The translations under genes and the position numbers were made by a program. A DNA stretch of 64,000 nucleotides from Gammaproteobacteria bacterium (GTDB taxonomy: Bacteria > Pseudomonadota > Gammaproteobacteria > GCA-001735895): contig JASFKL010000001.1 of NCBI GenBank assembly GCA_050118655.1, forward strand, positions 186-64,185. Reading direction: 5' to 3'. The notes beneath the pieces were generated by a model. It was not told the DNA's origin. It searched no databases and was given only the letters and a program-made list of their open reading frames with translations. Shown piece after piece: positions 1,456 through 54,247 of the stretch (positions are counted from its first letter, which is position 1; each line of letters opens with the position of its first letter).

Positions 1456-1895
1456 GCGGAACCTCCTGCGTCGATGGCGGCGTTCGCCAGTTGATCGGCC
1501 CGTTCGTTGCCGTGGACCCCGGAATGTCCCTTGACCCATTTCCAGCTAACGCGGTGGCGGGCGGCCTCGTCGTCGAGCCGTTTCCAGAGATCGTAATTCT
1601 TGACCGGCTTGCGGGCCGCGGTTTTCCAGCCGTTACGCTTCCAGGTCTGGATCCACTCGTTGATTCCCTGCATCACGTATTTCGAATCGGTGTGCAATTC
1701 GACCTCGCAGGGACGCTTGAGTGCGCGTAAACCTTCGATCACCGCGGTCAACTCCATGCGGTTGTTGGTGGTTTGCGCCTCGAAACCCTTCAAGGTCTTG
1801 TCGTTGCCGCGGTAATGCAGCACCACGCCCCAGCCGCCCGGACCGGGATTCCCGCGGCAGGCGCCGTCGGTATACATTACGACTTTATCCGCCAT
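1452..1895 (-). CDS. rnhA: Ribonuclease HI
   Basis: [19 protein letters not shown]...[13 protein letters not shown]...HTDSKYV...[20 protein letters not shown] is a full-length RNase H match. Confidence 0.95.
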
Positions 1896-1900
1896 CGAAA

Positions 1901-2665
1901 CTAGCGGTCATACTTCATGCTGCGCCCGACGCTGGGCCGGGCCATCTTGCCGGGCAGTATCTTGCGCGCGACCCAGCGATGGCGCACGGGTGTCAGGGGG
2001 GCGATATTCTTGCTGTATACCATCAGGTTGATCGCGCCGAGCAGCGGCGACAGGATACGCGTGCTCTTTTCCAGCCAGCCCAGGTGCCGAATCACCGAAG
2101 GCCGCTGAATCGGCGGCAGATAACCGACCCGGATGTGCCTGTCCTGATCGAAACCGAGCAGTTGCATCCAGTCGTCGATCCGCCGGGCCGTGTAGAGGTG
2201 GCCGGTAAAGGGAACATGCTCGAGCCAGGACTGGCAGTAGTGCCTGAAGCCCCAGAGCGAAACGGGATTGAAATCGATGATCACCAGCTTACCCTCGGGA
2301 ATCAGGACTCGAAAAGCCTCGCGCAGGACCGCGTGCGGTTCATCGGTATTCGCCAGGTGATGCATCAGGATGACCAGGTCGACGCTGTCCGAAGCGACCG
2401 GCAGCATCGAGGGGTTGGCCCTGATCTTGGACCCCGAATCCAGCTCGTCGAGCGTGAACTGGTGCTTGATGCGACAACTCTGTTGCAGGCTGGCTGCCAT
2501 GCCCGGACAACCGATTTGCAGCGAGTAATAGCCGAAAGTCGTCGACAATATCGGATTGATGCGCTCTTCCAGCTCTTTGAACAGATGTTGACCGGTTTCC
2601 GCCTGATACCAGTCGTCCATACAGGCAAATCTTTTGCTATCAGTGCCTTGTCGGTCAAATCTCAT
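1901..2665 (-). CDS. Class I SAM-dependent methyltransferase (YafS-like)
   Basis: It resembles the methyltransferase that neighbours rnhA in enterics and pseudomonads (FGYYSLQIG...[11 protein letters not shown]...[15 protein letters not shown]). The alternative ATG at 2620 (MDDWYQ) is equally plausible. Confidence 0.75.
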
Positions 2666-2730
2666 TTGAAAGTTACGAATCGCGAGTTACAATCAAGTAT
2701 ATTCTAGCCACTAAAAACAATCGATACTAA

Positions 2731-4500
2731 ATGTTTCCCATTTCGAAGCCCCTGCCCGGGGACCGTAATCTGTTGGCCTATCCGCTGTTCGCGCTGTTGG
2801 TGGCGGGATGCGCGAACCTGCAACCCGCGCCCGATGCCGGCGGAGCGGACGCGGAGCCGATCCGGGCTCAGGACGCAGGCGACAACAGGCAGCAAATTGA
2901 CTCGCGCCTCGATGCGGTGGCGCTGGCTTCGGCCGGCTCGGTATATGTCGCTTACGATTTCGATTTCGAAAGCCAGCTGAAAATGGCCGAGACAGAGGCC
3001 GCCGAAAGACAGCGCGCGGCCGAGGCCGAAGCCAGGGCGGAAGCGGAGATCGTCGCCGCGATCAAGGCGGACCTGGAAGCGACCCGCAAGAAACACGATG
3101 CCTGGCTCAGGCTGCAACAGGGCATGCAATTGTCCGAGGTCCACAATGAGCGCGTCAACGCCCAGCTCAAATGGTTCGTCGATCACCCCGGATACATGCA
3201 ACGCGTGATGGAGCGCGCCCGTCCGATCCTGCCGTTCGTGCTCGACGAGCTCGAAGCGCGCAACCTCCCCAGCGAACTGGCCCTGCTGCCGATCGTCGAG
3301 TCGGCTTACCAGGCATTCGCCTATTCCCACGGACGCGCCTCGGGCATGTGGCAAATCATCCCCTCGACCGGCCGCTTCCTCGGGCTCAAGCAAAACTGGT
3401 GGTACGACGGACGTCGAGACATCATCGAGTCGACGCGCGCGGCGATCAATTATCTGCAGCAGTTGTCGCAGGAATTCGACGGCGACTGGGAACTCGCGCT
3501 CGCGGCCTACAACGCGGGGCCCGGCAGGATCCGCAGCGCGGTTCGCTACAACCGCTATCGGGACCGGCCGACCGATTTCTGGAGTCTGACCCGTATTCGC
3601 AAGGAGACCCAGGCTTACGTGCCGAAGATGTTCGCGCTCAAGGAAATGTTTACTCATCCGGAGAAGTACCAGCTCGACCTGTTGCCGATCAACAACCAGG
3701 TCAGTTACGAAATCGTCGAGCTCGACGGCCAGATCGATCTCGCGCTGGCCGCGGACCTGGCCGGAATCTCGGTGAATCAACTCTATCAGTTGAACCCGGC
3801 CTTCAATCGCTGGGCGACCGCGCCCGACGGGCCGCATCGCCTGCTGCTGCCGCGCGGCAAGGCGGATCATTTCAGGCACGAAGTCTCCAAGGTACCGAGT
3901 ACCAAGCGCATCAACTGGGTGCGGCACAAGATCAAGAGCGGTGAAACGCTGAGTGAAATCTCGCGACACTACCGGACTTCGGTGGCGCTGATCAGGGAAG
4001 TCAACAATATCCGCGGCAGCCATATCCGCGCCGGCAAATACCTGATGGTTCCGACGGCCACCAAATCGCTGAGAACCTATACCCTGAGCGCGAGTTCGCG
4101 GCTGGCAGCCCTGCAGAACACCGACCGCGGCGGAACCCGCCAGGAGCACATCGTGCGTCCGGGACAGAGCCTGTGGAGCATCTCGCGGAGCTACGGCGTC
4201 ACCACGCGGGCGCTCGCCAAGTGGAACGGCATGGCGCCGATCGATACCCTGCAGGTGGGACAGAAGCTCGTCGTATGGACCAGCGCCCAGGCGCGCAAGG
4301 TCAGTATCAGTCAGACGCGGCCCAGTAACGCATTACACGCGCTGCGCTACACTGTCCGCAAGGGAGATTCACTGTATCTCATCGCGGATCGCTTCAATGT
4401 CAGCATCGCGGATATCAGGCGCTGGAACCGGCTCGGCAAATATTTGCATCCCGGGCAAAAAATCAAACTTTACGTCGACATCACCAGTCAGTCCGGCTAG
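2731..4500 (+). CDS. mltD: Membrane-bound lytic murein transglycosylase D (lipoprotein, SLT domain plus C-terminal LysM repeats)
   Basis: Lipobox LVAGC near the N-terminus; SLT catalytic region LLPIVESAYQ...GMWQIIPSTG...AAYNAGPGR. Three LysM-like repeats are present (HKIKSGETLSEISRHY, HIVRPGQSLWSISRSY, YTVRKGDSLYLIADRF). Confidence 0.9.
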   Translation: MFPISKPLPGDRNLLAYPLFALLVAGCANLQPAPDAGGADAEPIRAQDAGDNRQQIDSRLDAVALASAGSVYVAYDFDFESQLKMAETEAAERQRAAEAEARAEAEIVAAIKADLEATRKKHDAWLRLQQGMQLSEVHNERVNAQLKWFVDHPGYMQRVMERARPILPFVLDELEARNLPSELALLPIVESAYQAFAYSHGRASGMWQIIPSTGRFLGLKQNWWYDGRRDIIESTRAAINYLQQLSQEFDGDWELALAAYNAGPGRIRSAVRYNRYRDRPTDFWSLTRIRKETQAYVPKMFALKEMFTHPEKYQLDLLPINNQVSYEIVELDGQIDLALAADLAGISVNQLYQLNPAFNRWATAPDGPHRLLLPRGKADHFRHEVSKVPSTKRINWVRHKIKSGETLSEISRHYRTSVALIREVNNIRGSHIRAGKYLMVPTATKSLRTYTLSASSRLAALQNTDRGGTRQEHIVRPGQSLWSISRSYGVTTRALAKWNGMAPIDTLQVGQKLVVWTSAQARKVSISQTRPSNALHALRYTVRKGDSLYLIADRFNVSIADIRRWNRLGKYLHPGQKIKLYVDITSQSG

Positions 4501-4617: not shown

Positions 4618-5673
4618 ATGAGCCTTGAAATTGATCCCAAACAAATAAAATCCTTCTCTCCGATCAATTCTCTGAATCCAGAAAACGCTCAAGAATTAGT
4701 CAACAAAATTACCGCTACCCCGATCCAGGCGGGCCACTATATCTTCAAGAAAGGTGATATGGACAAGGCGCACGTCTACGTGCTCTCGGGCGAAGTGGAG
4801 CTGGTGCAGGACAAAAAGGTGGTCAAGACCATCAAGGCGGGCTCCCCGGAAGGCATGCAACCGCTGGCGCACGGATTTCCCCGGCCGGTGTCGGCGCGCG
4901 CCAAGGTCGCCTCGGTGGTCACCAAGATCAACAGCGACATGCTCGACATCATGCTGACCTGGGACCAGTCGGGCAGTTACTCGGTAGAACCCGTCGACGA
5001 AGAAGACGAAGAAACCGACTGGATGACCCGCATCCTGCAAACCCGGGCCTTCCATCGCATTCCGCCGGCCAATATCCAGGCGATGTTCATGCGCATGGAA
5101 TCGGTCAGCTTCAAGCCCGGCGAGAAAGTGATCGAACAGGATGCCGAGGGCGATTATTTCTACATCATCAAGGAAGGCCGTTGCCTGGTCACCCGCTCCA
5201 CGCCGGCCAACCCGAATGGCGTCAAGCTGGCGACCCTGTCGGTGGGCGACAGTTTCGGCGAGGAAGCGCTGATCTCCGACAGCAAGCGCAACGCGACGAT
5301 CACGATGCTGTCCGAGGGGCATTTGATGCGCCTCAACAAGGAGGATTTCAACTCGCTGCTGAACGAACCGCTGCTCAACTGGGTCGATTACGACGAGGCC
5401 AGGAAACTGGTCGATGCGGGCGCCGTCTGGTTCGACGTACGCCTGCCTACCGAGCACAAGGCCAAGCACATCAAGGGCAGTATCAATATCCCGCTGATTT
5501 TCCTGCGCATGAAGGCCAATTCGCTCGATACCGAAAAGAAATACGTCATCTATTGCGATACCGGCCGGCGCAGCTCCGCGGCCTCTTTTCTACTCAACGA
5601 AAAGGATATCGAGACCTTCGTATTGCGCGACGGCGTCGATACCGCCGAGCCCTCCGACCTGGTTACCAGCTAA
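4618..5673 (+). CDS. Tandem cyclic-nucleotide-binding domain protein with C-terminal rhodanese domain
   Basis: The second cNMP domain has a canonical phosphate-binding cassette (FGEEALISDSKRNATITM); the first domain is degenerate. The C-terminal rhodanese fold (WFDVRLPTEH...YVIYCDTGRRSSAAS) keeps the active-site Cys loop. Confidence 0.8.
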   Translation: MSLEIDPKQIKSFSPINSLNPENAQELVNKITATPIQAGHYIFKKGDMDKAHVYVLSGEVELVQDKKVVKTIKAGSPEGMQPLAHGFPRPVSARAKVASVVTKINSDMLDIMLTWDQSGSYSVEPVDEEDEETDWMTRILQTRAFHRIPPANIQAMFMRMESVSFKPGEKVIEQDAEGDYFYIIKEGRCLVTRSTPANPNGVKLATLSVGDSFGEEALISDSKRNATITMLSEGHLMRLNKEDFNSLLNEPLLNWVDYDEARKLVDAGAVWFDVRLPTEHKAKHIKGSINIPLIFLRMKANSLDTEKKYVIYCDTGRRSSAASFLLNEKDIETFVLRDGVDTAEPSDLVTS

Positions 5674-7634: not shown

Positions 7635-10265
7635 ATGAAAACCCGTTTTTGGAGTAGCGACTGGTTCGCCGGGCTGCTGATTACCATCGTGATTGTGGCG
7701 GTCTCGGGTTCCGGCCCCTTCCAAAGCCTGGAGCGCTCGTTTTACGACTGGGGCGTGCGCTCGACCGACAGGACTCCCTCCGACAAGATTGCGATCATCG
7801 CCATCGACGACGAGAGTATCGACAACCTGGGCCGCTGGCCCTGGCCGCGCGACCTCCACGCCGAATTGATCAACCGGCTTTCCGAGGGCGGAGCCAAGGT
7901 CATCGGTCAAACCGTATTTTTCCTCGAACCCCAGGTCGATCCGGGGTTGACCTATATCCGCGAACTGATCGAGTTTTTCTCTACCGCGAGCTTCGGCGAC
8001 GTTCCCGCCGATATCGATGCGCTGGGCGCGATGCTGGAACTGGGCGGCAACAATCGCAAGATAAACGATATCCTCGAATTCTATCTCCAATCGAGCCTGA
8101 ATACGCGTCTCAACCAGGATATCGAAACCCTGAAATCCCGAATGTTCGAAGCCGAGCAGGCGCTCAACACCGACGCCAAGCTCGCCGAGAGCATGGAAAA
8201 AGCCAAGAACGTCGTGCTGGCGATGGTCTTTTACCTGGGCATCCCGCGCGGCAAGCCCGACGAGGAACTGCCCGACTACGTGCTGAAAAACTCGATCAGC
8301 CAGATCCGTGACCGCGTATCGGCACAACCCAACGGCCTGTTCCCGATTCCGACCATCGATGCGCTGACACCGATTCCGGAAATCGGCCGCTACGCGGCGG
8401 CGATCGGCCATCTCAATACCCTGCCCGATATCGACGGCGGGGTTCGTTCAGAGCCGCTGGTGCTGCAGTACTACGACCGCTTCTTCCCGTCGATATCGCT
8501 GCAAATCGCCGCGCGCAGCCTGAACCTCGACACCAACGACATCCGCGTCAATCTGGCGGAGAGCGTCGAACTCGGCAGTCTGGCAATCAAGACCGATACC
8601 CAGCTGCAGATGAATACCTTTTACTACTCGAATCGCGATGGTTTTCCGGCATTTCCGGTGGATTCGTTTTACGACGTATTCACCGGCAAGATTCCGATCG
8701 AAAAGTATCGCGGCAAGATCGTTTTGATCGGCCCCACCGCCACCGGCGTCGGTACGCCGCAGGTCACTCCCATCGATCCCGCAATGGCGCCGGTACTGAC
8801 GCTCGCACACTCGGTTTCGAGCATCCTCAAGGAGGATTTTTTCATCGAGCCCGAATGGGGCTTCTGGGCGCGCATGGGTACCTTCCTCGTGGTTGCGCTC
8901 TACCTGATGCTGCTGATGCCGCGGTTAAAGGCCGGTGTCGCTTTCGTGGTCACCACGGTGCTGGTGCTGGCACTGATCGCCACCCATTACATACTGATGA
9001 CCGGCAGCACGATGTGGATTCAGTTGATGACCCCGGGGGCCCTGCTGGTGATCGGTTACCTGTTGATCACCACCAAGAGATTCCTGGTCACCGAGCGCGG
9101 CAAGGCCAAATCCGACGTGGAATCGGCCGAGAGCAACCGGATGCTGGGTATCGCATTTCAAACCCAGGGTCAACTCGACATGGCGTTCGAAAAATTCCGC
9201 AAGTGCAGCCCGGTCGACGAACAGGTGCTCGAGGCGATGTACAACCTGGCGCTGGATTTCGAGCGCAAGCGGCAATTCAACAAGGCCACTTCGGTGTACC
9301 AGTACATGGCCAAGCACGACAAGAGCTTCCGTGATATCGAAACCCGTATGAACCGCGCGCAGAAGATGGAAGAAACCGTCATGCTCGGCGGTAGCGGCGG
9401 ACATGCGGGCGGCACCCTGCTGCTCGATGGCAGCGGTGTCGAAAAACCGATGCTGGGCCGTTACGAAGTCGAAAAGGAACTCGGCAAGGGCGCCATGGGT
9501 ATCGTCTACCTGGGCAAGGACCCCAAGATCAGCCGGGTCGTGGCGATCAAGACCATGGCCCTGGCGCAGGAGTTCGAAGCCGACGAACTCGACGAGGTCA
9601 AGGAGCGGTTCTTCCGCGAGGCGGAAACCGCGGGGCGCCTGAATCATCCCAATATCGTAACCATTTACGATGCCGGCGAGGAGCACGATCTCGCCTATAT
9701 CGCGATGGAATTTCTCAAGGGCTACGACCTTACGAAACACTGCAAGCCCGATAACCTGCTGGAAATGAATACCGTGGTCAGCATCGTCCAGCGCGCCGCC
9801 GAGGGCCTCGATTTCGCGCACCGGCAAAACGTCGTGCACCGCGATATCAAGCCGGCCAACATCATGTACGAGCCGGAATCGGATACCATCAAGATTACCG
9901 ATTTCGGTATCGCGAGAATTACCGATTCGAGCAAGACCAAGACCGGGATGGTACTCGGCACGCCCTCTTACATGTCTCCCGAACAACTGGCGGGCAAAAA
10001 AGTCGATGGACGTTCCGACCTGTTTTCACTCGGCGTCATGCTTTACCAGATGCTTTGCGGATCCCTGCCCTTCAAGGCGGATTCGATGGCCAGTCTGATG
10101 TTCAAGATCACCAACGAAGAGGCCCCGGACATTCGCAGCGTGCGCGAGGATATACCCCATGGCCTGGTCGAAGTAATCGCCTTGGCCATGACCAAGGATG
10201 CCGACCAGCGATATCAGACAGGAGCCGATTTTGCCAATGCATTGAAAGCATTTCTGAATAATTGA
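7635..10265 (+). CDS. CHASE2 sensor - transmembrane - TPR-like - Ser/Thr protein kinase
   Basis: CHASE2 signature IAIIAIDDESIDNLGRWPWPRD follows an N-terminal TM segment, and three TM helices lie around aa 410-480. The kinase motifs are all present: LGKGAMGIVY, VAIK, HRDIKPAN, DFG, GTPSYMSPE. RBS GGAGA lies upstream of the ATG at 7635. Confidence 0.9.
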   Translation: MKTRFWSSDWFAGLLITIVIVAVSGSGPFQSLERSFYDWGVRSTDRTPSDKIAIIAIDDESIDNLGRWPWPRDLHAELINRLSEGGAKVIGQTVFFLEPQVDPGLTYIRELIEFFSTASFGDVPADIDALGAMLELGGNNRKINDILEFYLQSSLNTRLNQDIETLKSRMFEAEQALNTDAKLAESMEKAKNVVLAMVFYLGIPRGKPDEELPDYVLKNSISQIRDRVSAQPNGLFPIPTIDALTPIPEIGRYAAAIGHLNTLPDIDGGVRSEPLVLQYYDRFFPSISLQIAARSLNLDTNDIRVNLAESVELGSLAIKTDTQLQMNTFYYSNRDGFPAFPVDSFYDVFTGKIPIEKYRGKIVLIGPTATGVGTPQVTPIDPAMAPVLTLAHSVSSILKEDFFIEPEWGFWARMGTFLVVALYLMLLMPRLKAGVAFVVTTVLVLALIATHYILMTGSTMWIQLMTPGALLVIGYLLITTKRFLVTERGKAKSDVESAESNRMLGIAFQTQGQLDMAFEKFRKCSPVDEQVLEAMYNLALDFERKRQFNKATSVYQYMAKHDKSFRDIETRMNRAQKMEETVMLGGSGGHAGGTLLLDGSGVEKPMLGRYEVEKELGKGAMGIVYLGKDPKISRVVAIKTMALAQEFEADELDEVKERFFREAETAGRLNHPNIVTIYDAGEEHDLAYIAMEFLKGYDLTKHCKPDNLLEMNTVVSIVQRAAEGLDFAHRQNVVHRDIKPANIMYEPESDTIKITDFGIARITDSSKTKTGMVLGTPSYMSPEQLAGKKVDGRSDLFSLGVMLYQMLCGSLPFKADSMASLMFKITNEEAPDIRSVREDIPHGLVEVIALAMTKDADQRYQTGADFANALKAFLNN

Positions 10266-38803: not shown

Positions 38804-41800
38804 CTAGATCTGTTCCAGCAGTGCCTGCGCCTCTTCCTTTTGCGCATCGTTGCCTTCGGCGATGACTTCCTCCAGGCTGCCGCGGGCGCCTTCGGTATCG
38901 CCCATGTCGATGAACGCGCGCGCCAGATCGAGCTTGGTCGACACCTCGTCCACGTCGTCCGGCAACATCAGGTCGTCGATATCGTCGAGATCGGCAGCAT
39001 CGGCTACCGCGGTCGGCTCGTCGAAGTCGCCGGGCGCGAAAGTACCGGTCCTGGCTTCCTCGTCGTCATCCTCCATGTCGACATCGATCGACAGGGAATC
39101 GTCGTCGCCGGCGGATTCCACCAGTGCCGTGGGCTCTTCGAAATCGTCGGCGCCGAAATCGAGTATCGATACATCCTCGTCGTCGTCGATATCCCCGTCG
39201 TCATCCGTCGGCAGCTGCAATTCACCGGTATCCAGCGACGGATCGTTGAGATCCATGATTCCGGTATCGTCCATACCGAGATCTATGCCCTCGTCGTCAT
39301 CGCTTTCGGAATCGTCGCCGCCGAGCAACGAGGCTTCCAGCTCATCGGAAGACACCACCGCGGTTGCTTCCAGGAAATCGTCGGCACCGTCTTCTTCGGG
39401 CACCTCCAGTTCGATCGAATCCTCGATTTCGTCACCGCCGTCGTCGTCATCCGCGAAACCCAGGTCTTCACCGAGATCGAAATCGGAGGGATCGTCGTCG
39501 GTGGTGCCGTCATCGAGGTCGAAATCCATCGCCATGTCGAGTTCGTCGTCTGCCTGGTCAGCCGATTCCCCGGCGCCGACGGTATCTTCGTCGTCTATCG
39601 AAAACTCGAGTTCGTCGCCGATATCATCGGGCAAGTCGAGGCCGCTGTCCTCCGGCTCTTCCGCCCGCTGATTCAGATTCGTTTCGTCGTCCTCGCCGAG
39701 GTCGGGGAAATCGCCGACTTGCTGGACCACCTGGGTGGCCGCGACTTCTTCCTCGCCCAATTCCGGCAACTCGTCGACTTGCTGGATGACCTGGGTAGGC
39801 GGTAAGCTGTCGTCGTCACCCCCCGATTCGTCTTCGTTGAAATCCCCTCCGGTATCGTCGGCGCCGAGATCGAAATCGGTAGTCGAGAAGCTGGTATCGT
39901 CATCATCGGCGCCGAGATCGAAATCAGCCTCCTGGGGGTTGGCGATCTCCAGATCCGCGGCACTCAGATCACTGTCCTTGGCCTCCGAGAACAGCGGATT
40001 GTCTGGCGCCAGTTCGTAGCCCATGATTTGCACGCGATCCCAGTAACGTGTCGCCGCATCGCCCATCGACTTGAGTTTTTCCGCTTCCTTGACGAAAGCC
40101 GATTCGTTCTTGGTCGCGAAATAGGTATCGAGCAGTTTCGAGCGGTAATCGGCGCGATCCGGATTATCGGTCAGGCTGCTGTTGAGTAATTCCTCGGCAT
40201 TGTCGTACAGGCCATAGGCGAGGTAGACATCGACCTCGTTGAGCACGTCGTCCTGTTCGGCGGGCTCTGCCGTGGCCGCCGGAGCGGGTGCTTCGGGCTC
40301 CGGCATATCGGTTGCCGAAATGATCGAGGTCTGCGCAAAATCATCCTCGGCTTGGGGCGGCACTTCGGCGGTAACTTCCGCCGTCGAGGTCATCGTATCC
40401 AGTTCGTCGGCGGACGGGATATCCTCGTCCGACGGTGTCTTGATGTCGGTATCTTCGGGGAGTTCGACATCCGCGAGATGAATCGGGGTCAGTTCTTCTT
40501 CGTCGTCGGCGAAAAGATCCTCGTCGCCGCTCGCGGTTATCGTCGATTCGCTGTCACTGCTGTTTTTTTTTCTCTTGATTACCAGCAGGGCCACCAGGAG
40601 CAGGACTACCCCGCCGAGCGCGGCGAGCGTAATCGGGTCGCTGAAGATTCCGCCCATAGAAGGCATCGACGGAATCATGTCGGCGGCGCCGGCCGGGAGA
40701 ATTCCATCCAGGAAGGACGGCTCGCGTTTCGTCTGTTCGGTTACTATTACGGGCGCCGGCGGAGTGGTCTGCTGTGCGGCCTGTCCCTGGTCGTCCGACT
40801 GCCCGCCGGTGGCGGCTTCTTCGCCCTCGTCGGCGGCCATCCCCTCGGTGGAACCCATTTCGGCGGCAGGCGCCTGCCCGGCAGCTTCGTCTTCGACCAT
40901 GCCGCCTGCAGTTCCCTCGTCGCTGACCATGCCGTCGTCGCTGGCCGCCGGGGCTTTCGCAGCCTCTTCCTCGGCCTGGGCCGCGGCCTCTTCGGCAAGT
41001 AATTCCTCGATGAGCGCATCCTCGCTGGACTCCACCTTCCCGTTACCCGCTTCAGCCGGTGGTTCCTCGACAGGCTCGCCACCTTCGGATGCTCCAGCTT
41101 CCGGTTGCTGGGCGGACTGATCGGCCTGCAGCCTGGCCAGGCTGTCATCCTCGATCTCGACCATTTTTTGCAGTTCTTCGACCTTGGACAGGCGTGCCTG
41201 GAGATCCGAGATACGCGATTCGAGTTCGCGATTCTCGATTCGGGAGGCCTCGAGTTCTTCCTCGGCCATCGCCAGCTTGGTGCGTAACTCTTCAACCTCG
41301 GCACCATCGCCGGTTCCCGCCGAATCGCCGCCGCCGTCGGCGGGCAACAGCAGGCTCAATTCGCCACCAGACTCGCCGGTATCGGCGGTCTCGCCGCCGG
41401 CGGATTCGGTGGATTCGGCGGACTCGCCCTGATCGACCGCGGCCGTCGTCGAAACGCCGGTTACCCGTGCGACATACTCGTCCCACAGACCATTCTGGAC
41501 CAGGACTTCCGCGTAGGCTTCCTGCTCACCCATGGCATCGAGTTCGGCGGCATCGGGAGCGCGCAGAATCGCGCCCTCCTTCATATTGTTGATATTACCG
41601 TCATTGAAGGCATCCGGGTTGGCGCGCTGAAAGGCGAGCATAACCTGCGACATGCTGTGACGGTCGTCCTTATAGAGCTTGGCGATACTCCAGAGGGTGT
41701 CGCCCTTATTGACGTATACCTCCTGGTCGAGGCCGGTCTGCGAACTGGAGGGCGTGTACTGGTAACTGCTCGAGTCGGCTATCGGCTCGGGCTCCGGTTG

Positions 41801-42418
41801 GGCTACCGGCTCGGGCGTCGCGATCTCGTTGCCAGAGCCGTCATCCGACAAGGCGATCGGCTCGCTGAGCTGCTCGCCGGTTTCGGCAGACTCGGCGGAT
41901 TCGGATTCCATGGTGCTGGTCACGCCGGTCTGCTCGACGATATCGCTGACACTCGATTCGTCGCTGATCGGTGCGGCGGCCTGCTGGCTGGCAGGCTCTA
42001 CGGGCGGCGGCTGATCGGCATAGAACGGCGGGTCGAGCAAGACCGTGAATTCGCGCAGTACCCTGCCCTTGGCCCAATCGGCCTCGATGAGGAAATTCAG
42101 AAAGGGTTCCTTGACGCCGTCCTTGGTGGACACCACGATGACGGCCTCGTCGCCGGCCTCGTTCTTCCTGACGGAAAAACGCAGGTCCAGAAGATTGCGC
42201 GGGCGTGCCAGGCCGGCGCGGGAAAATGCTTCGCGGGAAGCGAGGCTGACCAGTAAATCGTCGATCTCGCCGGGACGGGCGGAAATAACCGGGATCTCCG
42301 CTTCTAGCGGCTGGTTCAGGAATGACTTGACTTCGATCTCACCCAAACCCAAGGCGAGCGCGTTGGTCGGCAAGATCGCCGTTAGCCACAATGCAACTAT
42401 TAGTCCCAGATTACGCAC
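38804..42418 (-). CDS. fimV: FimV/HubP-like polar scaffold protein (signal peptide, FimV N-domain, LysM, one TM, very acidic cytoplasmic region, TPR-like and FimV C-terminal motif)
   Basis: N-terminus LGLGEIEVKSFLNQPLEAEIPV...LREFTVLLDPP, LysM YVNKGDTLWSIAKLY, TM ITLAALGGVVLLLVALLVIKRKK, C-terminus KLDLARAFIDMGDTEGARGSLEEVI. It lies between truA and asd as in Pseudomonas. GTG start at 42418 with RBS GGGAGA. Confidence 0.85.
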   Translation of the reverse strand: MRNLGLIVALWLTAILPTNALALGLGEIEVKSFLNQPLEAEIPVISARPGEIDDLLVSLASREAFSRAGLARPRNLLDLRFSVRKNEAGDEAVIVVSTKDGVKEPFLNFLIEADWAKGRVLREFTVLLDPPFYADQPPPVEPASQQAAAPISDESSVSDIVEQTGVTSTMESESAESAETGEQLSEPIALSDDGSGNEIATPEPVAQPEPEPIADSSSYQYTPSSSQTGLDQEVYVNKGDTLWSIAKLYKDDRHSMSQVMLAFQRANPDAFNDGNINNMKEGAILRAPDAAELDAMGEQEAYAEVLVQNGLWDEYVARVTGVSTTAAVDQGESAESTESAGGETADTGESGGELSLLLPADGGGDSAGTGDGAEVEELRTKLAMAEEELEASRIENRELESRISDLQARLSKVEELQKMVEIEDDSLARLQADQSAQQPEAGASEGGEPVEEPPAEAGNGKVESSEDALIEELLAEEAAAQAEEEAAKAPAASDDGMVSDEGTAGGMVEDEAAGQAPAAEMGSTEGMAADEGEEAATGGQSDDQGQAAQQTTPPAPVIVTEQTKREPSFLDGILPAGAADMIPSMPSMGGIFSDPITLAALGGVVLLLVALLVIKRKKNSSDSESTITASGDEDLFADDEEELTPIHLADVELPEDTDIKTPSDEDIPSADELDTMTSTAEVTAEVPPQAEDDFAQTSIISATDMPEPEAPAPAATAEPAEQDDVLNEVDVYLAYGLYDNAEELLNSSLTDNPDRADYRSKLLDTYFATKNESAFVKEAEKLKSMGDAATRYWDRVQIMGYELAPDNPLFSEAKDSDLSAADLEIANPQEADFDLGADDDDTSFSTTDFDLGADDTGGDFNEDESGGDDDSLPPTQVIQQVDELPELGEEEVAATQVVQQVGDFPDLGEDDETNLNQRAEEPEDSGLDLPDDIGDELEFSIDDEDTVGAGESADQADDELDMAMDFDLDDGTTDDDPSDFDLGEDLGFADDDDGGDEIEDSIELEVPEEDGADDFLEATAVVSSDELEASLLGGDDSESDDDEGIDLGMDDTGIMDLNDPSLDTGELQLPTDDDGDIDDDEDVSILDFGADDFEEPTALVESAGDDDSLSIDVDMEDDDEEARTGTFAPGDFDEPTAVADAADLDDIDDLMLPDDVDEVSTKLDLARAFIDMGDTEGARGSLEEVIAEGNDAQKEEAQALLEQI

Positions 42419-42933
42419 GTTATAGTCTCCCAGCTCCCCGACCTATTTGTTATAAAAGTGCCTTAAATTCCATGCACCTATGATTGCAGCCAGAGAATTT
42501 ACTTTAAAGAAAGCACTTTCACAAGTAGATGTAAATACAGATTGTAGAAAAGATTTTAGCAAAATCTCTAAAACATTCACGAAATTATTGGTGAGCCCTG
42601 AAATCGCACTTTCCACGGTCTATCCCGCAGGGCCGCGGGAACGACGGTACGGAGCTTGTTGCAGGAGGCTTATAGCATAGCTAAACAATTGATTCCAATC
42701 GAAATACCCTGTTCTTCGAACCCTGTCACCTGGACCCCGAAAAAGGCTTCCGAGCGCCGTTTAAAGCAGGCCAGGCCGCGAATTCCCGCCAGAATAAGGC
42801 CCCGAGACCGGCGCCGATACCCGCAAACGCGTCGAATCCGGCCTTAACGGCCGCCTGGAATATGAAATATTTCCCAAAAAGGCTTTTCCCGGCGAGAACC
42901 TGACCGCCTCATCGAGGTTCGCGATCCGCTCGC

Positions 42934-48747: not shown

Positions 48748-49236
48748 ATGTACTGGCCGAAGAAAATTTTCATCGCGTTGACCGCGATCGTCCTGCTGCA
48801 GTCGGTCTTCTACTACCCGAAGATGCCGGCGGTGGTCGCCTCGCATTTCGATGCGCAGGGCGCGGCCAACGGCTGGTCCGGCAAGGAAGTTTTCTTCGGG
48901 CTTTACCTGGCTATCGTCCTGTTGCTGTTCGGGGTCTTCGGCTGGGTACCGAAGTGGATCGAATCACGCCCCGGCAAAAGCGTTAACATTCCCAATCGCG
49001 ATTACTGGCTGGCCCCGGAACGCAGGGCCGAAACCTGGGCCTTCTTCCGCCGCCAGATGATGCTGATGGGTGACCTGCATCTGTTGCTGGCGATTTTCGC
49101 CTTCCAGCTGGCGATCCTCGCCAACTTCGATCGGCCTCCTCGATTGCATCCGGCGATCGGCTGGGCGCTGGCTTTTTACTTCATCGTTTTCACCGCCTGG
49201 CTGATCCACTTTTTCCTGCATTTCAAAAGGCCGTGA
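48748..49236 (+). CDS. Membrane protein, DUF1648-like
   Basis: [43 protein letters not shown] plus three further hydrophobic helices. The ATG at 48748 was preferred to the track's GTG at 48703. Its stop overlaps the next gene's start (GTGA). Confidence 0.6.
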
Positions 49237-50264
49237 AGAGCCGCAAGATCATTCACGTGGTTTCCTGTCACGCCGAGGGCGAGGTCGGCGACGTTATCGT
49301 CGGCGGCGTCGCCCCGCCTCCCGGCGATAGCCTCTGGGAACAGTCGAGGTGGATCGACCGCGACGGCCGGCTGCGAAATTTCATGCTCAACGAACCCCGC
49401 GGCGGCGTGTTCAGGCATGTCAACCTGTTGCTGCCCGCGAGGCATCCCGACGCCGACTTCGGCTTCATCATCATGGAGCCCGAGCACACCCCGCCGATGT
49501 CCGGCTCCAACGCGATCTGCGTGGCGACCGTGCTGCTGGACAGCGGGCTGATCGAGATGCAGGAACCGGTCACCGAGTTTACGCTCGAAGCACCGGGCGG
49601 ACTGGTGCCGGTGAAGGCATTTTGCGAATACGGCAAGGCGCAGAGCATCGAGGTTGAAAACGTCGCGTGCTTCGCCGGGCGGCTCGATGCGCCGCTGGAA
49701 GTCGAAGGCGTCGGCACGCTCCGCGTCGACACCGCTTATGGCGGTGACAGTTTCGTCATCGTCGACGCCGCCGGCCTGGGCTTCGAGATTCGTCCCGAGG
49801 AGGCCGCCGAACTGGCGCGGACAGGCGGGCGCATCACGCGCGCGGCCAACGAACAGCTGGGCTTCGAACACCCGGAAAATCCGGACTGGTCGCATATCTC
49901 TTTTTGCCAGTTCGCATCGCCGATCGAGCAGGACGACGGCGTCCTGGTCAGCCGCAATGCCGTGGTCATCGACCCGGGCAAGCTGGACCGCTCTCCGACC
50001 GGCACCGGCTGCTCCGCGCGGATGGCGGTATTGCATGCCAGGGGCATGATGGGCACGGGCGACCGGCTGGTCGGCAAATCGATCCTCGGTTCGCGATTCG
50101 ATTGTCGTATCGTCGGCGAAACCCGGGTCGGCAGCAGGCCGGCGATCCTGCCCGCGATCCGCGGTCGCGCATGGATCACGGGCACCCATCAGTTATTGCT
50201 GGACCCCGACGATCCCTGGCCGGAGGGATACCGGCTCAGCGATACCTGGCCGCTGAAAACCTGA
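49233..50264 (+). CDS. Proline racemase / hydroxyproline epimerase superfamily protein with non-canonical catalytic residues
   Basis: [26 protein letters not shown] and [14 protein letters not shown]. The canonical MCGH and SPCGTG Cys positions read MSGS and SPTGTG here. Confidence 0.85.
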
Positions 50265-50392
50265 TGACCGCCGGGTATCGAAGCGGGACGCCGCGGATCG
50301 CCTTGATCCCGGTCAAATTGTATCCGCGGGTCATGCCGATATAATTGCGCATTCTCGAAACCGGAATACCGGATTCATTATCGTGCCCTGAA

Positions 50393-51820
50393 ATGCCCGA
50401 ATCGCCAATGGAAAAAAACGTCAGCAGCCGCAACACCCACGATAAGGCGCTGCGCATCAATCTCGACGAAAAGAAATACGGCACCATCGTCGAGATCGGC
50501 GCCGGCCAGGAAGTCGCGCGCCAGTTTTTCAAGGCCGGGGCGGCCGCGGGAACCATCGCCAAGACCATGTCGGCATACGACATGCAGTTTTCCGATGCGA
50601 TTTACGGGGTCCAGGAAGACCGCCGCTACGTCAGCCACAGCCGGGTGGAGGCGATGCTGAAAAAGGAATTCCAGCTGGTCATCGACCGGGTCAGCAAAAT
50701 TCGCTCGGCCTCGTCGCGCTATTTTTCCTATGCCGCCACGGTGGCCGCCAAGAGTTTCAAGGGCAACAACGAGTGCCATGCCTGGTGCGGTATCCGGGTG
50801 CAGATGTATCCGGGCGCGGAGCCGTCCGACATCGTCATCCACGTACGCATGCGCGACGGCGACGCGGATCGCCAGCAGCAGGCGCTGGGTGTGTTCGGTG
50901 TCAACGTGATTTACGCGGCCTATTACTACTTCGAAAACCCGCAAACCCTGATCGATTCGCTGACCGATAACCTCGAGCAGGGGCGCATCGAAATCGACTC
51001 GATCGAATTTCAGGGCCCCTACTTCGAAGAAGTCGACAATCGCGCCATCAACCTGCACCTGATCCGCAGCTGGAAAACCCGCGCCATCATGTTCCGGCCC
51101 GACGGTTCGGTCGCCGTTCCGGCCGAAATGCTTCACAAGAAAAACGTGCTCACGATTCGCGGTACCTTCAAACCGGTAACCCGCCTCAACGTGGACATGA
51201 TCGAGCAGGGCCTGAAGGCTTTCACGGGCATGGACGGCGTGACCGTGGAAAACAGCGTCGCACTGGCCGAAATATCGCTCAACGACATGCAGGGTAACGA
51301 TCTCGGGGTATCCGGAGAAGACTTGATCGAGCGCGTCAGCCTGCTGAACAAGCTCGGCTACAGCGTGATGGTTTCGGATTACACGCGGTACTTTTCGCTG
51401 CGCGCCTATTTCCGCCAGTTCACCAAGCTGCAGATCGGCATCGTCCTCGGGATCATGAACATCCGGCAGATTTTCGACGAGAACAGCTACCGCGGGGTCG
51501 AAGGCGGTATCCTCGAAGGTTTCGGCAAGCTGTTCCCCGATAATACGCGGCTGCTGGTTTACCCCGAAATCGACAACGCCGGGGAATATGTGGACTATCA
51601 AAGCGTCGTTTTACCGACGAATCTGCAATACCTGTATCGCCACCTGCTGGAGAACCATTTCATCTTCGGCATCGAAGCCAGCGACCGCGAACTGTTCAAG
51701 ATTCATTCGCGCGAGGTGCTCAAGCAATTGCCGGACGGCAGGGGCGACTGGGAAGCCTGTCTGCCCGAGGGTATAGCCGAGGAAATCATCGAGCGAAGGC
51801 TGTTCGGCTACCGGGACTGA
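50393..51820 (+). CDS. Conserved-looking hypothetical protein, about 475 aa, no domain recognised
   Basis: A long ORF with backbone-like codon usage and no visible TM segment. The N-terminal region reads KALRINLDEKKYGTIVEIGAGQEVARQFFKAGAAAGTIAKTMSAYD. The start is uncertain (ATG 50393 or 50408; the track's TTG 50345 would overlap a candidate -10). Confidence 0.7.
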   Translation: MPESPMEKNVSSRNTHDKALRINLDEKKYGTIVEIGAGQEVARQFFKAGAAAGTIAKTMSAYDMQFSDAIYGVQEDRRYVSHSRVEAMLKKEFQLVIDRVSKIRSASSRYFSYAATVAAKSFKGNNECHAWCGIRVQMYPGAEPSDIVIHVRMRDGDADRQQQALGVFGVNVIYAAYYYFENPQTLIDSLTDNLEQGRIEIDSIEFQGPYFEEVDNRAINLHLIRSWKTRAIMFRPDGSVAVPAEMLHKKNVLTIRGTFKPVTRLNVDMIEQGLKAFTGMDGVTVENSVALAEISLNDMQGNDLGVSGEDLIERVSLLNKLGYSVMVSDYTRYFSLRAYFRQFTKLQIGIVLGIMNIRQIFDENSYRGVEGGILEGFGKLFPDNTRLLVYPEIDNAGEYVDYQSVVLPTNLQYLYRHLLENHFIFGIEASDRELFKIHSREVLKQLPDGRGDWEACLPEGIAEEIIERRLFGYRD

Positions 51821-51847
51821 AACGCCCGCGCACGGATTTGCCGGGGT

Positions 51848-53062
51848 TCAGGCGATAATCCCCGCAGCGCGGAGTTTTTCGAGATCTCCGGCGTCCAGCT
51901 CGAGCAATCGCGAGAGAACCTCGTCGGTGTGCTGGCCGAGCAACGGCGGGGCCTGCCGATAGTCGATCGGCGTACGCGACAGCCGGATCGGGTTGGCGAC
52001 GCTGGCGACGCTGCCGGCCGACGGGTGATCGAGCTGCAGCTGCAGACCGCGTGCCTTGACCTGCGGATCGTCGAAAACCTGATCGATTTCATTGATCGGT
52101 CCGCAGGGAATCCCCTCGGAGTTGAGTGCCTCCAGCCACGCGGCGGCGGATTTTTCACGCATGATTTCGGCGACCCGGGGAACCAGCAGGTCGCGATGCT
52201 CGACGCGCGCGCGATTGCTGCGAAAACGGGGGTCCTCCGCGAGTTCGGAGCGACCGGCGAGAGCGCAGAAGCGCGCGAACTGGGAATCGTTACCGACCGC
52301 CAGGATGATATAGCCGTCGCTGGTCTGAAACGCCTGGTAAGGGACGATATTGGGATGCGCATTGCCGAGCCGGCGCGGGTTTTCGCCGCTGGCGAGATAA
52401 TTCATCGCCTGGTTGGCGAGCGCGGCCACCTGCACGTCGAGCAGGGCCATATCGATATATTGTCCCTCGCCCGTCGCGCGCTGGTGAAGCAATGCCGCCT
52501 GGATCGCGTTGGCCGCGTACAGGCCGGTCAGGATGTCGGCCAGCGCCACGCCGATCTTCATCGGCTGACCGTCGGCCTCGCCGGTGACGCTCATCAATCC
52601 GCCCATCGCCTGGATCATGAAATCGTAGCCGGCGCGCGCCGCGTAAGGGCCGTCCTGGCCGAAACCGGTGATCGAGCAATACACCAGGGAAGGATTGATT
52701 TCTTGCAGGCTGTCGTAGTCGAGGCCGTATTTTTCCAGACCGCCGACCTTGAAGTTTTCGATCAATACGTCGGCGAGACGGGCGAGCTCGCGGATCAACT
52801 CCTGCCCGCCGGGTTGCGACATGTCGATGCATACCGACTGCTTGCCGCGGTTGGCGCTGTGAAAATAGGCCGATTCTGAACCCGGTTTGCCGTCGCGATC
52901 CGGCATGTAGGGCGGACCCCAGCCGCGCGTATCGTCGCCGCTGCCGGGACGCTCGACCTTGATCACCTCGGCGCCGAGATCGGCGAGCATCTGGCTGGCC
53001 CAGGGCCCGGCGAGGATGCGGCTCAGATCCAGTACCCGCACGCCGGCGAGTGGTCCAGACAT
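51848..53062 (-). CDS. Family III (CaiB/BaiF) CoA-transferase, glutarate/succinate CoA-transferase-like
   Basis: GVRVLDLSRILAGPWASQMLADLGAEVIKVERPGSGDDTRGW. It lies immediately downstream of gcdH with a 0-nt gap, as in the gcdH-gcdG pair of pseudomonads. Confidence 0.88.
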   Translation of the reverse strand: MSGPLAGVRVLDLSRILAGPWASQMLADLGAEVIKVERPGSGDDTRGWGPPYMPDRDGKPGSESAYFHSANRGKQSVCIDMSQPGGQELIRELARLADVLIENFKVGGLEKYGLDYDSLQEINPSLVYCSITGFGQDGPYAARAGYDFMIQAMGGLMSVTGEADGQPMKIGVALADILTGLYAANAIQAALLHQRATGEGQYIDMALLDVQVAALANQAMNYLASGENPRRLGNAHPNIVPYQAFQTSDGYIILAVGNDSQFARFCALAGRSELAEDPRFRSNRARVEHRDLLVPRVAEIMREKSAAAWLEALNSEGIPCGPINEIDQVFDDPQVKARGLQLQLDHPSAGSVASVANPIRLSRTPIDYRQAPPLLGQHTDEVLSRLLELDAGDLEKLRAAGIIA

Positions 53063-54247
53063 CTAGAAGAATGCCTGGATGCCGGTTTGCGCCCTGCCCA
53101 GGATCAGGGCGTGGATATCGTGGGTACCCTCGTAGGTATTGACCGCCTCGAGGTTCATCGCGTGGCGGATGACGTGATACTCGTCGGCGACCCCGTTACC
53201 GCCGTGCATGTCGCGTGCGACGCGGGCGATGTCGAGCGCCTTGCCGCAGTTATTGCGTTTCATCATCGACACCAGCTCCACCGGGCAGTTGCCGGCATCC
53301 ATCAGGCGCCCCATTTGCAGGCAACCCTGCAACCCCAGGGTGATCTCGGTCTGCATGTCGGCGAGCTTCTTTTGCACCAGCTGGGTCGCCGCCAGCGGCC
53401 GGCCGAACTGGTTGCGGTCGAGCGTGTACTGGCGCGCGGCGTGCCAGCAGAATTCGGCCGCGCCCATGCTACCCCAGGCGATACCGAAACGCGCCCGCGT
53501 CAGGCAGCCGAAAGGCCCCTTCAGGCCCTCGACGTTCGGCAACAGGTTTTCCTCCGGCACGAAAACGTCCTGCATCGCGATTTCACCGGTTACCGAGGCG
53601 CGCAGCGAAAACTTGCCTTCGATCCCGGGTGTCGTCAATCCGTCCATGCCGCGCTCGAGGATAAAACCGCGAATCACGTCGTCGAGCTTGGCCCAGACAA
53701 CGAAAACGTCGGCGATCGGCGAATTGGTGATCCACATTTTGGCTCCCTTGAGCCGATATCCGCCGTCGACCGCGGTGGCCGTGGTTTTCATGCTCGCGGG
53801 ATCCGATCCGGCATCGGGTTCGGTGAGCCCGAAACATCCCACCAGCTCGCCGCTGGCGAGCCCGGGCAGATACTTGCCGCGCTGTTCGTCGCTACCGTAG
53901 GCATAAATCGGATACATGACCAGCGACGACTGCACGCTCATCGCCGAGCGGTAACCGCTGTCGACGCGCTCGACCTCGCGCGCGATCAACCCATAGGACA
54001 CGTAGTTGACGCCGGCACAGCCGTATTCCTCGGGAAGCGTCGCTCCCAGCAATCCCAGCTGGCCGAATTCGTTCATGATTTCGCGATCGAACACCTCGTC
54101 GCGATTGGCCCTGCGGATGCGCGGCATCAATTGCTGCTGGCAGTAGTCGCGGGCCGCATCGCGGATCAGGCGCTCCTCGTCGGCGAGCTGCTGCTCGAAA
54201 AACATCGGATCCTGCCAGTCGAAAGTTACGCGTTTTGCTTGGGTCAT
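53063..54247 (-). CDS. gcdH: Glutaryl-CoA dehydrogenase
   Basis: [22 protein letters not shown]...[14 protein letters not shown]...[14 protein letters not shown] is an acyl-CoA dehydrogenase of the glutaryl type. Confidence 0.92.

Follow-up and report, generated by a model that had tools for sequence, protein, structure and literature searches.

A conserved, uncharacterised protein family with a predicted PncC-NadD fold fusion, altered catalytic motifs and a candidate FNR-type promoter in one gammaproteobacterial clade

We analysed a 64,000-nucleotide stretch of a Gammaproteobacteria bacterium (assembly GCA_050118655.1, contig JASFKL010000001.1; hereafter the window) and describe one of its genes, which encodes a protein of 470 amino acids. 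The protein belongs to a large, strongly conserved and uncharacterised family that lacks a Pfam or NCBIfam model. Structure prediction very strongly suggests a two-domain architecture, with an N-terminal PncC/CinA fold and a C-terminal NadD/NMNAT fold. We lean towards a cytosolic protein derived from a PncC-NadD-type fusion that would bind or process a phosphoribosyl nucleotide, probably a pyridine nucleotide, with altered chemistry.

An AlphaFold2 model was built from an alignment of 75 diverse family members, in which 20 columns are invariant and a further 40 reach at least 90% conservation. The model has a mean pLDDT of 94.1 and a pTM of 0.91. It contains both the CinA/PncC alpha/beta fold and the Rossmann-like nucleotidyltransferase fold, and the two domains are packed rigidly together (Table 1). 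PncC/CinA and NadD/NMNAT were the only families returned at E < 1e-4 by a Foldseek search of the PDB, and all fold matches are cytosolic enzymes. We assign the PncC-like part to the N-terminal half because sequence comparisons point to NadD-type motifs in the C-terminal half. Residues 10-173 of the model follow the secondary-structure order of PncC (H-E-H-E-H-H-E-E-E-H).

Sequence searches were far less informative. The Pfam, NCBIfam, PADLOC and PHROGs libraries yielded no usable match for the protein (an EbdD match at E 0.047 and a PHROG match at E 0.18 were dismissed as noise), and a phmmer search of PDB sequences found no match. The Pfam CinA and CTP_transf_like models do not match the protein even at E = 1, and no homologue listed in two homologue searches carries a Pfam domain. 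An earlier, sequence-only reading of this DNA had found no recognisable domain and proposed profile searches, structure prediction and a fold search as checks. Its statement holds for the profile libraries and the PDB sequence search, which came back empty, but not at the fold level, where the predicted structure gave the PncC and NadD folds.

Among the structural matches in BFVD are proteins of phages and giant viruses that bear the names PncC, NMNAT or cytidyltransferase-like. The best viral match is A0A6J5RR79, a 360-residue protein of an uncultured Caudovirales phage (Foldseek E 4.3e-13), and its 440-column alignment suggests a shared two-domain architecture. The phage protein probably spans both domains and may represent PncC and NMNAT fused in compact form, a possible precedent for the architecture. 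It differs from the present family in that it is shorter, lacks the linker, is recognisable as ‘Cytidyltransferase-like’ and is only 13% identical. A0A3G4ZJY5, from Terrestrivirus, is also among the best viral structural matches.

The predicted N-terminal domain can be placed in register with E. coli PncC, such that residues E29 to V68 align with PncC E28 to V67. The 40 residues match without a gap, and helix and strand boundaries agree. In this register, the Gly-rich loop and the phosphate-binding Tyr would be kept (Table 1). The corresponding elements of Thermus thermophilus CinA (TtCinA) contact phosphate through the backbone amides of Gly284 and Ser286 and through Tyr296. The sequence-only reading had drawn attention to a glycine-rich stretch near the N-terminus. 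That peptide, YGTIVEIGAGQEVARQFFKAGAAAGTIAKT (residues 24-53, numbered from the ATG at 50408), is indeed present, and in this register it corresponds to the active-site and phosphate-loop region AESCTGG...GSS of PncC. Within it, Ala32 is conserved in 71 of the 75 sequences. Invariant residues of the family include N18, E29, T49, S55, Y57, D58, S62, Y66, R79 and E87, and Q34, E35 and D63 are at least 90% conserved. In the same register, the catalytic Ser of PncC would be replaced by Ile30 in 74 of the 75 sequences and the catalytic Lys by Ser62 in all of them.

The likeness to PncC/CinA proteins (PF02464; E. coli PncC/YgaD, Agrobacterium tumefaciens CinA 2A9S, T. thermophilus CinA 4CT8) lies, in the register given above, in the Glu that precedes the catalytic Ser, the Gly-rich loop, the phosphate-binding Tyr and the Thr of beta3. 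Several features set the family apart. First, there is no detectable sequence similarity, and Ile30 and Ser62 replace the Ser/Lys dyad essentially invariantly. Second, the family has a conserved set of its own (Q34, E35, T49, S55, D58, D63, Y66, R79 and E87). Finally, the additional domain is a C-terminal NadD-like one, as opposed to the N-terminal MocF/COG1058 domain found with CinA. MocF fusions and N-terminal tails appear in a review of CinA architectures, which does not list a PncC-NadD fusion (PMC3855486). Inactive or divergent PncC-fold proteins are known: E. coli YdeJ and YfaY reportedly have no nicotinamide mononucleotide (NMN) deamidase activity (PMC3855486). The CinA Pfam model still detects both but not the present family, and neither they nor HcgF (3WVA) have a NadD-like domain. 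An alternative register suggested by hhalign (residues 83-238) was rejected since it conflicts with the secondary-structure order.

The predicted C-terminal domain has more support from sequence. A hhalign comparison of residues 241-470 with three NadD sequences is collinear over NadD residues 2-213 (E 6.6e-4, probability 27%). A search of the PDB with the family profile found phosphopantetheine adenylyltransferase (PPAT) at E 0.0012, over residues 242-272, which contain the GxFxPxT loop, and 397-461. Comparison of the family profile with single E. coli PncC and NadD sequences by hhalign was not significant. Shared with NadD/NMNAT proteins (PF01467; E. coli NadD 1K4K, Staphylococcus aureus NadD 2H29) are the G-x-F-x-P-x-(T/H) loop and a ‘...VP..V...I..’ C-terminal helix.

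The nucleotidyltransferase signature itself is degenerate. The motif [HT]xGH has no match anywhere in the protein, which has T258-R-L-N261 in place of H-x-G-H (T-x-x-N/H in the family). Of the 75 sequences, 65 have Thr at position 258; at position 261, 32 have Asn and 24 have His. Degeneration extends to the IIGxD and ISxTxxR motifs, and there is no Pfam match. In the segment I-H-S-R-E-V-L, which corresponds to the second of these motifs, moderate conservation is confined to the Ile, Ser and Val positions, and there is no conserved Arg.

PncC, the NMN amidohydrolase, and NadD/NMNAT, the nicotinate or nicotinamide mononucleotide adenylyltransferase, act one after the other in the pyridine nucleotide cycle, and one interpretation of the two folds would be a canonical bifunctional NAD-recycling enzyme that converts NMN to nicotinate mononucleotide (NaMN) and then NaMN to nicotinate adenine dinucleotide (NaAD). 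The phosphate-binding Tyr and loop of the N-terminal domain, the GxFxPxT loop of the C-terminal domain and the His found at the second HxGH position in about one third of the family are compatible with such an enzyme. We nevertheless consider it improbable. The catalytic dyad of A. tumefaciens CinA (AtCinA) is S31/K63, and replacement of either residue by Ala (S31A, K63A) abolishes activity (PMC5384747), whereas the corresponding residues here are Ile in 74 and Ser in 75 of 75 sequences. T-R-L-N stands in place of H-x-G-H, there is no ISxTxxR motif, and the Pfam models of both families are silent.

With the dyad replaced and HxGH degenerate, the canonical reactions are unlikely, and we consider non-canonical chemistry likely. 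The proposed ancestor is a fusion of two consecutive enzymes of the pyridine nucleotide cycle. Descent from such an NAD-salvage fusion, with retention of a phosphoribosyl nucleotide ligand, is suggested by the rigid two-fold fusion and by the phage protein that apparently matches both domains. The ligand would most probably be NMN, NaMN or an NAD-related dinucleotide, and the reaction would differ from canonical Ser/Lys deamidation followed by HxGH adenylylation. In this scheme, catalysis would take place in the pocket of the N-terminal domain, with the Rossmann domain holding the nucleotide or the second substrate. We favour a remodelled enzyme over a pure binding protein because the new polar residues of the N-terminal pocket are very strongly conserved. 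A more specific version of this proposal is tentative: an undescribed enzyme family with a new active site (E29, Q34, E35, S55, D58, S62, D63) that would carry out a novel NAD-nucleotide transformation and, in at least one clade, be subject to a low-oxygen FNR-type switch.

The family is widely distributed. Approximately 8000 homologues received a score, and identity is at least 79% throughout the best 120. An exhaustive search of 50%-identity clusters identified 2798 representatives at E <= 1e-3, and members down to ~33% identity are still full length. Carriers include Alteromonas, Paraglaciecola, Shewanella, Colwellia, Granulosicoccus, Cardiobacteriaceae, Kangiellaceae and Hydrogenedentota, as well as Flavobacteriales such as the cultured Cryomorpha ignava. 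Members from Gammaproteobacteria and Hydrogenedentota are 50% identical. A mobile or defence gene was considered and rejected. Plasmid and phage records gave no tblastn match to the protein, and only 2 of 2.9 million viral contigs had one.

Two assemblies each carry two copies of the gene on separate contigs (Chromatiales bacterium ex Bugula neritina AB1-2, L049 and L054; Granulosicoccaceae metagenome-assembled genome CALKXD01, L037 and L056). This suggests that paralogues exist in Granulosicoccaceae-like bacteria. We also identified a 488-residue homologue (P0123, 47% identical) under three transcript ids in the Euglena longa transcriptome of EukProt. Its origin could be truly eukaryotic, for instance through gene transfer, or it could reflect bacterial contamination.

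Source names of family members in NCBI and UniRef are only ‘hypothetical protein’ and ‘TonB-dependent receptor’. The latter is carried by P0003, P0014, P0015, P0099, P0375, P0377, P0378, P0386 and P0388, including the Cryomorpha ignava copy. The sequence-only reading had ranked this gene as the large gene with the least annotation support in the window; public annotation does exist, but it is wrong. Database names are the only point in favour of an outer-membrane TonB-dependent receptor, an identity to which we give practically no credence. The protein has no hydrophobic N-terminal leader and no transmembrane segment (highest 19-residue Kyte-Doolittle mean 1.13, at residue 338), and Pfam finds neither Plug nor TonB_dep_Rec in it. 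The model, which is confident, shows two alpha/beta domains instead of a 22-strand barrel, with matches exclusively to cytosolic enzymes. We therefore reject the receptor and regard the name as a propagated misannotation. Genuine TonB-dependent receptor genes, with a signal peptide and a plug-like N-terminus, lie within five genes of a family member in seven Paraglaciecola/Alteromonadaceae loci, including L017. A literature search found no description of a PncC-NadD-like family or of the ‘TonB-dependent receptor’ misnomer.

The open reading frame is a real gene, and its best start is the ATG at 50408. When the upstream regions of ten close relatives, whose proteins share 77-82% identity, are aligned, the start codons of these relatives (GTG or ATG) line up exactly with this ATG, and nothing further upstream is conserved at the protein level. 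We define the coding sequence on these grounds. The resulting length of 470 residues is the modal length among homologues. The sequence-only reading had doubted the listed TTG start and preferred the ATG at 50393 or 50408; the relatives point to 50408. Its description of a long soluble frame with backbone-like composition also stands: besides lacking a transmembrane segment, the protein has no P-loop/Walker A match ([AG]x4GK[ST]), and the GC3 of the gene is 0.80 (0.77-0.82 in neighbouring genes). A 407-residue open frame on the opposite strand has no support and was rejected as a long-frame artefact typical of the strand opposite a GC3-rich gene.

Conservation of the upstream region indicates that the gene has its own promoter. 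We compared eight clade members (the window, L001, L003-L006, L008 and L009) and found two elements with a constant arrangement. The first is a TATAAT hexamer at the same position in all eight. The second is a CRP/FNR-family box (TTGAT-N4-ATCAA; TTGATCCCGGTCAA in the window) that always lies exactly 23 nt upstream of TATAAT. The palindrome has no mismatch in L003, L004, L005, L008 and L009 and one mismatch in the window, L001 and L006. These two elements are the only conserved blocks among close relatives; the remaining intergenic DNA is unalignable. As a background, 1620 random 300-nt segments were drawn from these loci, and 35 of them contain a site with at most one mismatch. The TATAAT overlaps the TTG at 50345, which thus cannot be the start codon. 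If the hexamer spans -12 to -7, transcription would start near 50352, downstream of this TTG.

The sequence-only reading had proposed a promoter composed of TTGTAT, a 16-nt spacer and TATAAT. The -10 element of this proposal is real and conserved, but TTGTAT is neither conserved among relatives nor a good -35 hexamer. Because it fits TTGACA at only 3 of 6 positions, a consensus promoter scanner makes no call at this site.

TTGAT-N4-ATCAA is the FNR/ANR consensus, and a site centred near -41.5 in place of a -35 hexamer is the geometry of class II activation. The box is centred approximately -41.5 to -42.5 from the predicted transcription start. The region resembles class II FNR/ANR promoters in its palindrome (9 or 10 of 10 positions), the fixed distance to a perfect -10 hexamer, the absence of a good -35 hexamer and the preservation of this arrangement in all eight clade members. 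It differs in the 23-nt spacer, which would place the centre nearer -42.5 with the hexamer at -12 to -7. The conserved arrangement suggests oxygen-responsive class II activation, and we consider FNR-type control reasonably probable in this clade. The gene would be transcribed singly, with induction, for instance at low oxygen, by an FNR/ANR-like regulator.

Four further candidate FNR sites with one mismatch occur in the window (4631-4644, 5323-5336, 9063-9076 and 42689-42702). The total of 5 FNR-consensus sites compares with 1.36 expected and was reached by no shuffle. The site at 42689-42702 lies in AT-rich intergenic DNA upstream of a gene for a 1204-residue protein with a FimV N-terminal domain (38804-42418, minus strand). 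No terminator was predicted at the gene under study, and Rfam gave no match on 50200-51900.

Neighbouring genes offer little functional guidance, as the sequence-only reading had stated. The gene stands alone. Clustering of flanking open reading frames found no partner gene conserved in more than 9 of 77 loci, and nine more contexts from distant branches contain unrelated housekeeping genes with no shared partner (~95 loci overall).

Two of these contexts bear on whether the protein acts in signalling. P0143 (616 residues; Logan SRR14005100 contig, gene 1726-3576) has a C-terminal histidine phosphotransfer (Hpt) domain, and the next gene on the same strand encodes a stand-alone response-regulator receiver. 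In a distant lineage (L096 1555-5130, L097 900-4475), the homologue lies ~95 nt downstream of an OmpR-type response-regulator/HAMP histidine-kinase pair on the same strand. These associations, the loss of canonical catalytic residues in both domains and the rigid domain packing (pTM 0.91) would fit a non-catalytic sensor or regulator, that is, a pseudoenzyme that binds a pyridine nucleotide or related metabolite and signals to partner proteins. We regard this as unlikely. Signalling links occur at only two of ~95 loci. Most invariant residues are polar or acidic, and they cluster in the PncC-pocket motifs (E29, Q34, E35, T49, S55, D58, S62, D63), a pattern more typical of an active site, and the identity between gammaproteobacterial and Hydrogenedentota members is unusually high for a sensor.

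In two distant lineages, a gene for a Glu/Leu/Phe/Val (ELFV) dehydrogenase adjoins the homologue on the same strand (L092 4783-7413, L093 2371-5001, L094 5197-7996). Enzymes of this type depend on NAD(P). The neighbours in the two lineages represent different subfamilies (23% identity), and no homologue of either was found in any other locus examined. The adjacency is probably a coincidence. It is also the evidence that could be cited for an enzyme of another, non-pyridine nucleotide or cofactor pathway that uses both folds, for example one in which another phosphorylated small molecule is adenylylated or otherwise processed. With no cofactor-pathway gene among the conserved neighbours, we find such an enzyme rather unlikely, somewhat more so than the sensor.

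Several points weigh against the favoured interpretation of a remodelled PncC-NadD-type protein that acts on a pyridine nucleotide. The register with PncC was set by secondary-structure order and an ungapped match made by eye, not by superposition. A hhalign comparison of the N-terminal domain with five PncC sequences gave a probability of 0.4%, and the search of the PDB with the family profile returned no CinA chain. No NAD-metabolism gene is a conserved neighbour across the ~95 loci. Canonical catalytic residues are missing in both domains, and the protein could be non-catalytic. HcgF acts on guanylylpyridinol, and PPAT and FMNAT-type enzymes act on other substrates. Since related folds have other ligands, the assignment of a pyridine nucleotide is a prior and not a result, and we judge it an even call. 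As for regulation, the box was not found upstream of Alteromonadales, Granulosicoccaceae or Hydrogenedentota homologues, and tblastn with E. coli FNR found no match in the window or the fetched loci. We therefore propose FNR regulation only for the clade of the window.

Table 1. Features of the gene, its protein product and its surroundings. Positions are those of the window; residues are numbered from the ATG at 50408. Correspondences to PncC follow the register described in the text, and domains are those of the predicted structure.
Feature	Position	Strand	Remarks
Open reading frame as listed	50345..51820	+	491 aa from TTG; in-frame ATGs at 50393 and 50408
Coding sequence	50408..51820	+	470 aa plus stop, MEKNVSSRNT...GYRD; ATG start
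PncC/CinA-fold domain (predicted)	50408..50932	+	aa 1-175; most conserved part of the protein
E29-I-G-A-G-Q-E35	50492..50512	+	Corresponds to PncC A-E-S-C-T-G-G; 74 or 75 of 75 at six of seven positions
Gly-rich loop A43-G-A-A-A-G-T49	50534..50554	+	Corresponds to PncC A-G-S-S phosphate loop; consensus A-G-G-A-S-G-T
S55-A-Y-D-M-Q-F-S-D63	50570..50596	+	S55, A56, Y57, D58 and S62 invariant
PncC A-E-S-C-T-G-G (catalytic Ser)			A/V-E29-I30-G-A-G-Q in the family
PncC phosphate-binding Tyr			Tyr57, invariant
PncC catalytic Lys			Ser62, invariant
PncC beta3 Thr (active site)			Thr111, 71 of 75
Linker subdomain (predicted)	50933..51133	+	aa 176-242; short helices and strands between the folds; pLDDT > 95
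NadD/NMNAT-fold domain (predicted)	51134..51817	+	aa 243-470; HIGH-type nucleotidyltransferase, Rossmann-like
R251-G-T-F-K-P-V-T-R-L-N-V-D-M264	51158..51199	+	Corresponds to NadD GGTFDPVHYGH; first His replaced by Thr258, Gly-His by Leu-Asn
I432-H-S-R-E-V-L438	51701..51721	+	Corresponds to NadD ISATIIR, degenerate; followed by conserved W...VP..V...I C-terminal helix
CRP/FNR-family (FNR-type) box	50303..50316	.	TTGAT-N4-ATCAA, 9 of 10 positions
TTGTAT, proposed as -35	50318..50323	+	TTGACA at 3 of 6 positions; probably incidental
TATAAT, -10 hexamer	50340..50345	+	Perfect; same position in all eight clade members
Antisense open reading frame	50378-51601	-	407 aa; without support
Pro_racemase gene	49233-50264		Upstream neighbour
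CoA_transf_3 (CoA-transferase family III) gene	51848-53062		Downstream, convergent
Acyl-CoA dehydrogenase gene	53063-54247		Downstream, convergent

The family comprises many thousands of strongly conserved proteins with no Pfam or NCBIfam model, and the one functional name in public use is demonstrably wrong and is spreading through annotations. The fold assignment provides a testable hypothesis, with NMN, NaMN, NAD, NaAD, ADP-ribose and ATP as candidate ligands, and singles out D58, S62, D63, T258 and N261 as residues of interest. The FNR-type promoter suggests low oxygen as a condition under which to seek a phenotype. A new activity, if there is one, would mean an additional step or sensor in the pyridine-nucleotide metabolism of bacteria, a field under close study owing to NAD-depleting immunity.

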